From IMG/VR virus record IMGVR_UViG_2778261161_000002: a stretch of 64,000 nt of DNA; one strand, written 5' to 3'. Positions within the stretch are counted from its first letter, which is position 1, and the number at the start of each line of letters is the position of its first letter. Below the pieces are notes generated by a model that worked only from the letters and a program-made list of their open reading frames with translations, did no database searches and had not been told where the DNA came from. The stretch is from a virus. Taxonomy: Duplodnaviria; Heunggongvirae; Uroviricota; Caudoviricetes. The translations under genes and the position numbers were made by a program. Below are positions 9,709-51,268 of this stretch, piece after piece.

Positions 9709-9929
9709 ATTAATTTGCTGTTTCTAAATCGGAATGTATGATCTGCATCATCGACTGAAGTCATCCATTGCTGAAATTTTTAGTTGATCTTCCATGTTTT
9801 CAGGCTTATATTCATGCCGTCGTAGCAAATTCTGCGACCAGGTTTGACAGCCTGAATGTTAGTGCGGACAACCGCAGATTTCCGATATTGCGGTATTTTT
9901 GTGTCCGTAAACCGCGTTACGCCCGAATT

Positions 9930-10030
9930 ATGGTGGGGCGTGATGGGGAGGCTTCGGCCTGCTGGTCTCACTAACGCCAGTCTGTCAACCCTGTCACGTC
10001 CTGCCACCTGTTTGACAGCGGGTAGCAGGT
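9930..10030 (+). ncRNA. Candidate c4-like antisense RNA region of immI module 1
   Basis: Direct repeats GTTTGACAGC at 9842 and 10010 flank a complementary CTGTCAAC at 9982, upstream of icd-like ORF; architecture as in P1 c4. Confidence 0.3.
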
Positions 10031-10058
10031 TGTTAAACCTGTTAGTGAGGCCGTAACT

Positions 10059-10283
10059 ATGGTTAATGCCAATCCTTGCTCACGTCCAGAATTCATCTGG
10101 CGTTTCCACTCCCTGCAAAAACACTGCGATCACTTCGCAATTGCCGCAACCGAAAAAGAAGCCCGTTCTCTGATCCCTGATCAGCATGGTGTTCTTACTG
10201 GTCGTTTCTCTACTTCCCCACAACCAAACACTAATCCCTGGTATCGCAATATTACCAATCCCGGCATTGCGGAGGCACACTGA
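10059..10283 (+). CDS. icd: Icd-like cell-division inhibitor, 74 aa
   Basis: Small ORF with EFIWRFHSLQKHCDHFAIAATEKEARS immediately upstream of and overlapping ant-like gene; paralog at 50053. Confidence 0.55.
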   Translation: MVNANPCSRPEFIWRFHSLQKHCDHFAIAATEKEARSLIPDQHGVLTGRFSTSPQPNTNPWYRNITNPGIAEAH

Positions 10284-10990
10284 TGGATATCTGCATTCTT
10301 GAAAAGCCATCAATGACCAGCATTGAGATCGCGGAGCTGGTGGGAAAACGTCATGACAATGTGAAGCGTACCATTGAAACATTAGCCGAATCCGGCGTTA
10401 TTGTTCGTCCTCAAATTGAGGATGAACCAAAAATAGATGTAATGGGGCGTTCTCGATTAATTCAGGTGTTCCGATTTAGCGACGAGCAAGGCAAACGAGA
10501 CAGTATCATTGTAGTCGCACAGCTTTGTCCTGAGTTTACTGCCCGGCTGGTGGACCGCTGGCGCGAACTGGAAGAACAAGTACGCCAGCCGTTGACCGAA
10601 ATAGAGATGATCGCCGCAATGGCTGCAAATGCAGTTCAGCAGCAAAAGCGGCTTCATGCTGTTGAGTCAAAGGTTAGCCAGGTCGCTGAAACCGTCGAGC
10701 AAATCAAGAAGGGCAATATGCCAGATGGTTACATTGGCTACCGCCAGCTGGCGGCGAAATGCGGCCTGACTGAAGCCAAATGTCGCAACCTTGTCAACGC
10801 TTACCGGATTCCCACCGATACACATGAGTTTTTAACTCCAGAGGGGGTATTGTCGCGTCGTTCCATCGTGGCCTTATCTCCCTTCATGAATGCTTTTAAC
10901 CGGATGATGTCGGAGGCTGAACACCGAGGAAAACGCTGGTATCACCCCAAAATGGGGCAATTCCAGGTGATCGGTTGGGGAGGTGAGTGA
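10283..10990 (+). CDS. ant: Antirepressor-like protein (Ant-like), 235 aa
   Basis: ATGA-coupled to icd-like ORF; shares conserved blocks GKRDSIIVVAQL.PEFTARLVDRWRELE and MP.GYIGYRQLAAKCGLTEAKCRNLVNAYRIPTDTHEFLTP with ORF 50268. Confidence 0.55.
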   Translation: MDICILEKPSMTSIEIAELVGKRHDNVKRTIETLAESGVIVRPQIEDEPKIDVMGRSRLIQVFRFSDEQGKRDSIIVVAQLCPEFTARLVDRWRELEEQVRQPLTEIEMIAAMAANAVQQQKRLHAVESKVSQVAETVEQIKKGNMPDGYIGYRQLAAKCGLTEAKCRNLVNAYRIPTDTHEFLTPEGVLSRRSIVALSPFMNAFNRMMSEAEHRGKRWYHPKMGQFQVIGWGGE

Positions 10991-11187
10991 TGGACATCAT
11001 GCAGGCGGTAAAAAAAATCAGGGAAGGACAGGCTGAAGTGTGCCGCCGTAAAGCATGGAGTGTTGGTGTATGGGCCTGGCCTGATAATTACTCTACTACC
11101 GGATGGTTTTGTATTAATGGACTCCAGATCCGGGAAGTTGATTTATCGACGGCTGATATAGTCGGTAATGATTGGATCGTGACTTGA
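10987..11187 (+). CDS. Small hypothetical protein, 66 aa
   Basis: ORF track; ATGA overlap with ant-like. Confidence 0.3.
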   Translation: MMDIMQAVKKIREGQAEVCRRKAWSVGVWAWPDNYSTTGWFCINGLQIREVDLSTADIVGNDWIVT

Positions 11188-11196
11188 AGCGTGATG

Positions 11197-11220
11197 CCCC
11201 GGCCTGGCCGGGGCTTTTTT
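11197..11220. terminator. Bidirectional terminator CCCCGGCC-tg-GCCGGGG + T6
   Basis: Hairpin and T-run between convergent genes. Confidence 0.75.
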
Positions 11221-49251: not shown

Positions 49252-49879
49252 TTTTAAGTTGAATTGTAAATTTCTCCGATGTACATTCACTACCGATTGG
49301 CACACCGGTCAACTTTTTGAGACAAACTGTTTAGTTTTTCGTATTATTGCCCCCGCCATACCTATGGCGGTGCAATATAGGTGGCTGAAAAGCCCCCGTT
49401 GACTCACGGTGTTCCAGCCTTTATTGCGCCGCCACCAGACCGTGGAACAGTCGATGGCGGCTCCGAAAGCAAGGAGTCACTACACTATGAACAACTACAG
49501 TCTTTTCCCATCACTCGTCGTCCACCACTCACGCGATAATCTGCATTCTTTATTCGCGCTGGGGGAGTCAAAATGACTGTTCGCTACCTCAACTTTCAAA
49601 TCAAGAACATTACTGGCGGTTGCTATGACTGGTTTGTCACTCTCGGAAAAGAAGTGATTACCGGGAAGCTGGATGAAGTGAAAGCTAAAGCAATGGCCTA
49701 CGCCTGCAAGCAAGCCCGGAAGAAATCCGCCAAAGCATAAAATACTGACTGTTGCGCCCTGGCATTATCGTGGGGTATATTTCTACGGCACCTTAGAAAA
49801 ACGGGTGCCGGGATTGGAACCCCGGATAATGCAAAAGGCGACACAGACGCCGAAAGCGTCTTTTCTTGTGTCATGCCAT

Positions 49880-50030
49880 CGCACAGCCATACGTAGCGTT
49901 TAGCTCAGAGATCAATGGTAGTGCTGGCTGGGCTGCCGAAAGGCAGGCCGGTTCCCTTTTGCGCCGGTAGTTCCAACCCAGTCAGTGCTACCGCCATTGA
50001 GATTGGAACCTCACGCGGTAGCTCCTTAAA
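49880..50030 (+). ncRNA. Candidate c4-like antisense RNA region of immI module 2
   Basis: GATTGGAACC at 49812 and 50001 with partially complementary GTTCCAACC at 49970; tRNA-like TAGCTCAG segment. Confidence 0.3.
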
Positions 50031-50052
50031 TTAGCAAAAGGAGGCTGCCAAT

Positions 50053-50268
50053 ATGGCTACTATCCCTACCCCAACTCATTCTGAATTTATCTGGCGTTTC
50101 TATTCCTGCCAAAAACACCTGTATATCTGCGTCATGGCTGCAACCGAAGCAGAAGCTCGTTCATACCTTCCTGAAGAACCCTGCATTTTTGCCGCACGCT
50201 TCACTCTTGATGCGATGGAGATCCTCAATTACTGGAATCTGCCAATGAACTGCGTGGAGGTGCACTGA
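50053..50268 (+). CDS. icd: Icd-like protein, 71 aa (second copy)
   Basis: EFIWRFYSCQKHLYICVMAATEAEARS; paralog of 10059. Confidence 0.55.
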   Translation: MATIPTPTHSEFIWRFYSCQKHLYICVMAATEAEARSYLPEEPCIFAARFTLDAMEILNYWNLPMNCVEVH

Positions 50269-51209
50269 TGAATCTGTCCATCTCTCAAAAAGCGACAATG
50301 ACCAGCATTGAGATCGCGGAACTGGTAGGAAGTCGCCAAGATAGTGTGAAGAGAACTATCGAAACACTGGCTAAAAAGAGTGTGATCCAATTTCCACAAT
50401 CTGTGGAAATTGAAAATAAACAATCAGTTGGCCCTCGTCGATTTTCCAAGGCTTACATCTTTGAAGGCGAACAAGGCAAGCGCGATAGTATCATTGTCGT
50501 CGCACAGCTCTCTCCGGAATTCACCGCCCGGCTGGTGGACCGCTGGCGCGAACTGGAGAATGCCAGGGGACCGTTAAAATCAAAAGCCGAAATCCTGGCT
50601 GAAATGGCGCAAATGCATCTTGAGCATGAACGCCGGATCAACGCCGTAAATGCCCAGGTAGCCGAGGTATCAGCACAAGTATCGATGGTCGCTGAAACAC
50701 TCGAGCAAATAAAGAAAGGCAATATGCCGGAAGGCTACATTGGCTACCGCCAGCTGGCGGCGAAATGCGGCCTGACTGAAGCCAAATGTCGCAACCTGGT
50801 TAACGCTTACCGGATACCCACTGATACGCATGAGTTTTTGACTCCCGACGGTTTGCTTGCGCGACGCTCAATTGTGGCCCTGGCCCCCTTCCGGAAAGCC
50901 TTTAAGCAGGTTATGTCGGAGGCAGAACCACGCAACAAACGCTGGTATCATCCAAAGATGGGGATGTTTCAGGCAATCCACCATCCTGTGCCTGAAAGTC
51001 CAAAGGCAAACCTGTCGTTGCATACCGCCAGAGAGAGGATTAAAACAGGGTATGCAATCGTATGCCGTCGAGCATCTTGGCCTGAAGGTGTATGGGTATG
51101 GCCCGAAGGTGGATCACGAAAGCACTGGCGCACTATCCGGGATGGGAAAATCCATGCGATTGATTTAGCTCCAGAGGATGTTGTTGCTACGGACTGGATT
51201 GTTAGTTAA
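50268..51209 (+). CDS. ant: Antirepressor-like protein (second copy), 313 aa
   Basis: Shares conserved blocks with ORF 10283 including a 56-bp identical DNA stretch. Confidence 0.55.
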   Translation: MNLSISQKATMTSIEIAELVGSRQDSVKRTIETLAKKSVIQFPQSVEIENKQSVGPRRFSKAYIFEGEQGKRDSIIVVAQLSPEFTARLVDRWRELENARGPLKSKAEILAEMAQMHLEHERRINAVNAQVAEVSAQVSMVAETLEQIKKGNMPEGYIGYRQLAAKCGLTEAKCRNLVNAYRIPTDTHEFLTPDGLLARRSIVALAPFRKAFKQVMSEAEPRNKRWYHPKMGMFQAIHHPVPESPKANLSLHTARERIKTGYAIVCRRASWPEGVWVWPEGGSRKHWRTIRDGKIHAIDLAPEDVVATDWIVS

Positions 51210-51217
51210 TTACTGTT

Positions 51218-51236
51218 GCCCCGGCCTGTCCGGGGC
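51218..51236 (+). terminator. Hairpin GCCCCGG-cctgt-CCGGGGC
   Basis: Read directly; short T-run. Confidence 0.5.
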
Positions 51237-51268
51237 TTTAACTACTAAATAACCGGATTCTCCGCACG

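Follow-up and report, generated by a model that had tools for sequence, protein, structure and literature searches.

Does a prophage with two antirepressor operons of the P1 immI type hold two independent immunity specificities, or is one operon a decaying duplicate of the other? The question is raised by a 64,000-nt stretch of DNA from a tailed virus (Caudoviricetes; IMG/VR record IMGVR_UViG_2778261161_000002; hereafter the window, meaning the whole stretch analysed), which contains one such operon at 9784-11214 (module 1) and another at 49752-51240 (module 2). A preliminary description, made from the letters of the window, had interpreted module 2 as an immI-like unit with an antisense target sequence of its own. 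Our analysis bears this out, as both modules contain a C4 RNA and the target sequence is UUGGAAC in module 2 vs UUGACAG in module 1. We regard module 2 as real, complete and clearly under selection. With a probability of roughly 0.8, it is a working antisense-RNA-controlled antirepressor operon of the P1 immI type, equipped with an IsrK-type leader, and the second such unit in a D6-like plasmid prophage. The coordinates of the features are listed in Table 1.

Two RNA elements precede the genes of module 2. The leader matched the isrK family and the antisense RNA matched the C4 family, both above the gathering score. The predicted fold of the leader places recognition site a1 in a hairpin loop and leaves b1 single-stranded. 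The C4 RNA carries the complementary elements, b′ in a hairpin loop and a′ in a single-stranded stretch. The fold of the C4 RNA has an energy of -46.4 kcal/mol, the conserved acceptor-like stem and the ACCGCC 3′ end are visible, and 13 of the 27 stem pairs are changed on both sides among relatives. By homology with the 77-nt C4 of P1, the mature RNA is predicted to span about 49917-49995 (~79 nt). Downstream, a2 lies in another hairpin loop, and b2 overlaps the Shine-Dalgarno sequence of icd2. The stop codon of icd2 in turn overlaps the start codon of ant2 (TGATG, 50266-50270), an arrangement of translational coupling. Icd2 shares 56% identity with the Icd protein of P1.

The preliminary description had recognised part of this geometry. 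The repeat GATTGGAACC that it reported at 49812 and 50001 indeed occurs exactly twice in the 64 kb, vs 0.17 occurrences expected, and only one of 100 shuffled sequences gave two or more. The partly complementary GTTCCAACC at 49970 occurs once, inside the C4 match. The a and b motifs, likewise, are confined to their predicted positions. The second recognition pair, i.e., GCAAAAGG at 49831 and 50034 with its b′ counterpart CCUUUUGC at 49955, had been missed, as had the IsrK-family RNA that holds the upstream sites.

Table 1. Positions of the features of modules 2 and 1 in the window.
Module	Feature	Positions	Strand	Basis or remark
2	Putative promoter: -35 TTGCGC, 17-18 nt spacer, -10 GTATAT/TATATT	-35 49752-49757; -10 49775-49781	+	Read from sequence
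2	IsrK-type leader RNA	49788-49866	+	Rfam isrK RF01394, 59.4 bits vs gathering score 50
2	Leader a1, UUGGAAC	49814-49820		Hairpin loop (fold)
2	Leader b1, GCAAAAGG	49831-49838		Single-stranded stretch
2	Intrinsic terminator of the leader	Stem 49845-49861 + U tract, to 49866	+	Terminator scan
2	C4 antisense RNA	49911-49998	+	Rfam C4 RF01695, 76.7 bits vs gathering score 45
2	C4 b′, CCUUUUGC (DNA CCTTTTGC)	49955-49962		Hairpin loop
2	C4 a′, GUUCCAA	49970-49976		Single-stranded stretch
2	Downstream targets a2 and b2	50003-50044	+	Motif positions, fold, covariation
2	a2, UUGGAAC	50003-50009		Hairpin loop
2	b2, GCAAAAGG	50034-50041		Overlaps icd2 Shine-Dalgarno AAGGAGG, 50038-50044
2	icd2, 71-residue Icd-like leader protein	50053-50268	+	Open reading frame list; PHROG 1426, E 3.7e-41
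2	ant2, 313-residue Rha-type putative antirepressor	50268-51209	+	PHROG 63 'anti-repressor Ant', E 2.8e-60
2	GC-rich hairpin GCCCCGGCCTGTCCGGGGC + short T run after ant2	51215-51240	+	Module alignment; homologous to module-1 terminator
1	Promoter TTGATC-17-TATATT	9784-9812	+	Promoter scan
1	c4-a1b1 element	9806-9858	+	Rfam c4-a1b1 RF03163, 54.4 bits, above gathering score
1	a1, UUGACAG; b1, GUUAGUG	9844-9850; 9858-9864	+	Motif positions
1	C4 RNA	9926-10011	+	Rfam C4, 66.3 bits
1	b′, CACUAAC; a′, CUGUCAA	9969; 9982	+	Motif positions
1	a2; b2 at icd1 ribosome site	10012-10018; 10041-10047	+	Motif positions
1	icd1	10059-10283	+	
1	ant1, 235 residues	10283-10990	+	
1	66-residue open reading frame	10987-11187	+	PHROG 7385
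1	Terminator	11196-11214	+	
1 and 2	Most similar ant1/ant2 stretch	10681-10890 vs 50687-50896	+	85% identity, 210 bp

Strong evidence for function comes from covariation. Relatives were gathered via Icd, and 34 module-2-type leaders, 31 of them distinct, were aligned. In the 31 distinct sequences, a′:a2 and b′:b2 are 100% paired, with four and three pairs, respectively, changed on both sides. The upstream sites follow almost as one, with a1:a′ 99.5% and b1:b′ 100% paired across related leaders. Overall, both partners have changed at seven of the 15 intermolecular pairs, and controls in which the sites were slid along the sequence are 28-58% paired. Covariation of the antisense and target sites shows these predicted pairings of module 2 to be under selection.

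The same alignment reveals how often the recognition code has been replaced. Element a occurs as UUGGAAC/GUUCCAA, UUGAGAC/GUCUCAA, UUGGUCU/AGACCAA and UUGGCCU/AGGCCAA, and element b as GCAAAAGG/CCUUUUGC, GUCAAAGG/CCUUUGAC and GUCUAAGG/CCUUGGAC. At least four matched a/b combinations are found among D6-like contigs with 95-100% identical Icd2. Module 1 has at least five codes, including reassorted halves of those of P1 and P7, and contigs that carry both modules show independent variation of their two codes. Even a distant copy from an Stx phage, with 68% identity, has matched triplets of its own. A functional antisense lock on which selection for new specificities acts should show such a pattern. 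Moreover, strong cross-pairing between the modules was not predicted: the duplex energies range from -9.7 to -20.1 kcal/mol for cognate pairs vs -1.6 to -7.7 kcal/mol for cross-module pairs, as calculated from short accessible segments, since folding of the full-length C4 RNAs with their targets, which ignored internal structure, did not discriminate.

That module 2 could be a decaying duplicate or an assembly artefact, as the preliminary description had allowed for in the form of a recent assembly duplication, is thus a negligible possibility; covariation and the separation of duplex energies together exclude both, and the paralogy itself is all that speaks for them. Decay is ruled out by the intact open reading frames, by RNA scores above those of module 1, and by compensatory changes that keep every pairing. 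An artefact is ruled out by the identity of 50-82% between the modules and by the presence of both in phage D6 and many independent complete plasmids.

How would the module work? In P1, C4 is excised from the operon transcript by RNase P, pairs with a2 and b2, and blocks translation of icd and of the coupled ant. By homology, module 2 would be expressed as a single transcript from the promoter near 49752-49781, whose TTGCGC -35 box is conserved, with its position, in related leaders, and which implies a transcript start at ~49788. Part of the transcripts would stop at the terminator at 49845-49866, giving a ~79-nt leader RNA with a1 and b1 as decoys. Read-through transcripts would hold C4, likely cut out as a stable ~79-nt RNA as in P1. 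The b′ loop and the single-stranded a′ would then pair with b2 and a2 just downstream and cover the icd2 ribosome-binding site. Because ant2 starts on the stop codon of icd2, the block should also keep Ant2 off during lysogeny.

The specificity of this lock would be set by a code of two elements, UUGGAAC + GCAAAAGG in module 2 vs UUGACAG + GUUAGUG, the code of P1, in module 1. As the codes differ, each C4 should silence only its own operon and incoming operons with the same code. In consequence, a resident prophage would silence antirepressors of two specificity classes, and only a resident that matches both codes of an incoming phage would prevent its escape. The dual immunity or anti-immunity control proposed in the preliminary description is a reasonable inference from the biology of P1 and P7, and its main interpretation appears sound. 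The short leader would serve as a specificity-matched decoy for C4, a trans-acting role that we extend from IsrK of Gifsy-1; the strict complementarity of a1 and b1 supports some functional pairing of the leader.

Several observations weigh against this reading. The module-2 promoter was not called by the consensus scan and is weak by consensus. The consensus of the P1 C1 operator has no match anywhere in the 64-kb window at up to three mismatches, and the D6-type operator may differ. The sequence ATTGCTGAAATTTTTAG at 9767-9783, immediately before the module-1 promoter, resembles the P1 C1 operator at its start; it is present in a single copy in the window, and related plasmids differ in sequence there. 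Neither Ant1 nor Ant2 has BLASTP similarity to P1 Ant1 (Ant2: E 0.013 over 67 residues, too weak for homology to be credible), and their antirepressor role is assigned by the Rha domain and the name of the PHROG family. In one relative (L032, IMGVR_UViG_2778261639_000014, upstream of 2001), a1 is UUGAGAC and mismatches its own a′ and a2, which are of the UUGGAAC type; this sole such case is probably a recent recombinant within the leader. Finally, in Gifsy-1, where a processed RNA of ~80 nt complementary to IsrK, STnc1160, is encoded just downstream of it, extra STnc1160 was not found to repress the system, and the leader was described as an activator (PMC4825925).

The Gifsy-1 work also suggests a different emphasis. 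Module 2 might be mainly a positive switch, in which a short IsrK-like RNA builds up in response to some stress and, on binding to the read-through transcript or to C4, turns on icd2 and ant2 and triggers induction, so that immunity specificity would be a by-product. In Gifsy-1, short IsrK provided in trans raises translation of anrP more than 100-fold and is needed for induction (PMC4825925). The isrK match of module 2 includes its own terminator, and complementarity to C4 is maintained at a1 and b1 as strictly as at a2 and b2; both points fit such a switch. Against it, codes have diversified repeatedly among near-identical elements, which suits selection for heteroimmunity and which an internal switch does not need; in addition, the homologue in P1 is known to repress ant. 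We give the switch slightly less than even odds, and it overlaps with the antisense lock that we prefer rather than excluding it.

The region around the C4 RNA contains further elements. A local hairpin (50017-50049) also sequesters the icd2 Shine-Dalgarno sequence, and the 3′ strand of the C4 outer stem, GCUACCGC (49987-49994), can also pair with GCGGUAGC (50015-50022), a pairing preserved at 96.8% in relatives with one compensatory pair. The two may represent alternative conformations like structures A and B of Gifsy-1. A 39-codon open reading frame (49915-50034) starts at a conserved AUGG at the 5′ end of C4 and stops 18 nt short of the icd2 start codon. All 34 relatives keep this frame open, and among the more divergent of them it extends in frame to the start codon of icd. 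By its position and conservation, it looks like the counterpart of orf45 of Gifsy-1, a translated open reading frame.

The product of ant2 bears on what the lock controls. Ant2 scored 28.1 bits against the Pfam profile Phage_pRha, just below the cut-off of 29.9, and its residues 252-312 match PHROG 7385. Homology links its C-terminal ~65 residues (about 51015-51206) with the 66-residue open reading frame that stands separately in module 1. Ant1 and Ant2 share 67% identity overall and 98% over residues 141-185. The GC-rich hairpin after ant2 was not called by the terminator scan.

The C-terminal domain gave a lead towards Tad2-like proteins of Thoeris anti-defence (Pfam PF11195, cut-off 25), and we treat it as a lead only. 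Scores were 15.1 bits (E 0.034) for the 66-residue open reading frame and 11.6 bits for the C-terminus of Ant2, both below threshold and with near-full coverage of the profile. In an exhaustive profile search, with Pfam applied to the hits, a profile built from the two sequences reached proteins P0008 (37.4 bits to PF11195) and P0005 (23.9 bits), which provides transitive support. A word-index homologue search gave only three matches, and a sequence search of solved structures with the domain found nothing. The AlphaFold model, made from a three-sequence alignment, had a pLDDT of 69, and Foldseek against the PDB returned nothing below E = 1.

These results, together with the lack of similarity to P1 Ant1, leave room for Ant2, and perhaps Ant1, not to act on their own C1, and instead to target the repressors of co-resident lambdoid prophages or to act via the Tad2-like domain, in which case module 2 would be no immunity determinant of the D6-like phage. 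In Stx and lambdoid phages, unrelated Rha-like genes follow the same isrK-C4 leader, and the profile just described reaches true Tad2-like proteins. Nevertheless, the close identity of Ant1 and Ant2, above all over residues 141-185, suggests a shared partner, both ant genes sit behind icd as in P1, and the Tad2-like scores remain below threshold with no structural match for the model. We consider this alternative unlikely.

The antirepressor operon of our preferred reading has a close counterpart in module 1, which is colinear with it, as the alignment called for in the preliminary description demonstrated. The leader of module 1 falls in the c4-a1b1 family and not in isrK. Module 1 shares its recognition sequences with phage P1, and there is 93% DNA identity to the P1 c4-icd region. 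The ant gene is split there into the 235-residue gene and the overlapping 66-residue frame that corresponds to the Ant2 C-terminal domain. Identity between the modules is ~50% in the RNA region, 60% in icd, 69% in the N-terminal part of ant, 82% in segment 10701-10960 and 52% in the terminal domain.

The similarity of the ant genes had been described as about 500 bp of roughly 85% identity in direct orientation across 40 kb, including a 56-bp perfect match. The orientation and the spacing (40,006 bp) hold; the longest block with at least 85% identity is 210 bp, and the perfect run is real and spans 62 bp (10730-10791 = 50736-50797), the module-2 coordinates given earlier being off by 3. Synonymous differences are fewer in the shared block, where 23% of codons for identical residues differ, vs 38-56% elsewhere. 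This reduced divergence and the mosaic ant1 alleles of other plasmids show that sequence is exchanged between the ant copies. In the D6-like plasmid NZ_CP047013.1 (L115, 2320-3048), for example, the centre of the module-1 ant is ant2-like, which makes the gene a mosaic that encodes 242 residues instead of 235. In NZ_CP029365.1 (L116, 468-1637), repL and the module-1 leader are separated by an inserted TnpB-family element.

Could the direct repeats, suggested earlier to be able to support recombinational deletion, be chiefly a substrate that deletes or splits off the intervening 40 kb? The 62-bp run within a 210-bp block of 85% identity, the direct orientation and the mosaic alleles would allow it. 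Among the 60 of 113 PLSDB records with the ant block that were listed, no deletion variant was found: nearly all have two copies and a length of 88-97 kb, no 40- or 53-kb plasmid with a single hybrid copy is among them, and the single-copy records are still about 90 kb. Chimeric ant1/ant2 queries designed for deletion products found mosaic ant1 alleles at the normal module-1 position instead. According to the D6 annotation, the 40-kb arc carries c1, pacAB, lpa, the cre/lox equivalent and phd-doc, so an element without it should be inviable or defective, and the loss should be counter-selected. Deletion as the main role of the repeats is, in our view, very improbable.

In its contents, the window is evidently part of a D6-like plasmid prophage (phage-plasmid) of E. 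coli, related to P1, and encodes darB, three tRNAs, c1 and cre. Module 2 has 96.6% DNA identity to Escherichia phage D6 (MF356679), and module 1 has 93.7%. Module 2 is 100% identical to several E. coli plasmids of ~93 kb, e.g., CP057047. Both modules are kept in phage D6 and about 100 complete plasmids, and module 2 was found in 92 plasmids at a coverage of at least 80%. Plasmid CP057047.1 is 100% identical to the window over module 2 and only 97.0% over the ant1 segment 10690-10960, and the window is thus a mosaic relative to its closest database plasmids. The same ant1 segment is 100% identical to that of Salmonella pYU39_89 and others.

The arrangement is not new. The icd/antirepressor pairs of both modules are annotated in D6 (orf83/orf82, and orf19/orf18/orf17, the latter three being the module-1 genes), and a second antisense-RNA/icd region was remarked on in a 2019 paper (PMC6799933); the double-module arrangement is therefore already on record for the D6 family, and the mechanism is of a known kind. 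As a known type of phage immunity control, the double arrangement itself adds little. What the comparisons add is strong covariation evidence that a1 and b1, only 'putative' in the P1 annotation, stay complementary to C4 as tightly as the true targets, and the finding that plasmids which are near-identical elsewhere have had the codes of both modules reshuffled. Phage-plasmids of the D6 type are frequent in E. coli and Salmonella, and the codes could serve as a typing marker and would predict which relatives can superinfect or induce one another.

A more far-reaching proposal can be made tentatively, and we hold it to be more probably wrong than right in its full form. The two C4/leader systems, each with two exchangeable elements, would form a two-lock immunity barcode that diversifies independently (at least 5 × 4 codes) and sets superinfection combinatorially; the terminated leader, whether IsrK or c4-a1b1, would be a decoy that titrates C4, and the operons may also deliver a Tad2-like anti-defence domain. 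If this were true, the IsrK activator of Gifsy-1 and the c4 repressor of P1 would be two aspects of a single mechanism. Two points deserve attention: the combinatorial way in which both codes have diversified, and the identification of IsrK with the a1/b1 leader.

Among the closest known systems is the immI region of P1 and P7 (c4 - icd - ant1/ant2). It shares with module 2 the order a1, b1, C4, a2, b2 on the icd ribosome site, the overlap of icd with ant and an RNA of the same family, and there, too, changes in a/b and a′/b′ define heteroimmune types. In contrast, the leader of module 2 belongs to the isrK family with its own terminator and not to c4-a1b1, the ant genes are of the Rha type without similarity to P1 Ant1 in BLASTP, a P1-type C1 operator was not found in the window, and there are two units per genome here vs one. 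Module 2 thus appears to have all the RNA and layout features of immI, and lacks the antirepressor homology and, within the window, the P1-type operator. Phage D6 and the D6-like plasmid pYU39_89 carry both modules at matching genomic positions. The codes of D6 differ from those of the window in both modules (b of module 1 is ACUUACG, a of module 2 is UUGAGAC), and neither RNA is annotated in its record.

The isrK - orf45/STnc1160 - anrP region of the Salmonella prophage Gifsy-1 resembles module 2 in its isrK-family leader and in a small open reading frame coupled to a Rha-like antirepressor. There, however, the frame overlapping the RNA is itself coupled to anrP, without icd, whereas a separate icd2 lies between them here, and the published model stresses activation by the short leader, not C4-like repression. 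IsrK and STnc1160 are highly expressed in lysogens (PMC7067206). We infer that STnc1160 is a C4 homologue, and the comparisons indicate that IsrK of Gifsy-1 and the a1/b1 leader found in C4 systems are one and the same element. In Rfam, isrK (RF01394) has no clan and c4-a1b1 (RF03163) is placed with C4 in clan CL00128; the two families match equivalent elements of modules 2 and 1.

The CI RNA of satellite phage P4 differs in that it acts via transcription termination and controls replication genes. Like C4, it is a processed antisense RNA that pairs with sites up- and downstream on its own transcript (seqA/seqC; PMC4825925). In Stx-converting and other lambdoid phages (e.g., LC710660 and phiP27), isrK and C4 are adjacent, with matched a/b triplets, before a Rha-like gene, and both RNAs are annotated in LC710660. 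These phages differ from the window in having no icd, a cargo unrelated to Ant2 beyond the first few codons and one copy per phage; Ant2 has no credible similarity to the Stx-phage protein.

Other combinations occur among P1 relatives. In many P1-like contigs of 95-100 kb (L034, 1700-3262, and other loci in L032-L083), a leader of the module-2 isrK-C4 type stands before a P1-type icd and P1 Ant1, with the mosaic joint within the first ~9 codons of icd (MATIPTPTH...); the same codons precede the unrelated Rha-like gene in Stx phage F039. The P1-like phage RCS47 (NC_042128; L084, 103405-105004) has two C4-controlled modules with unannotated RNAs. Its extra isrK-C4 unit is located between pacB and c1 and carries a 371-residue 'ant' unrelated to Ant2, which has no credible similarity to this protein either. 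Since a module-2-type leader precedes the P1-type icd and ant1, the ant of RCS47 and the Rha-like genes of Stx phages, the leader-C4 unit is, judged by these joints, a portable regulatory cassette set on non-homologous cargo.

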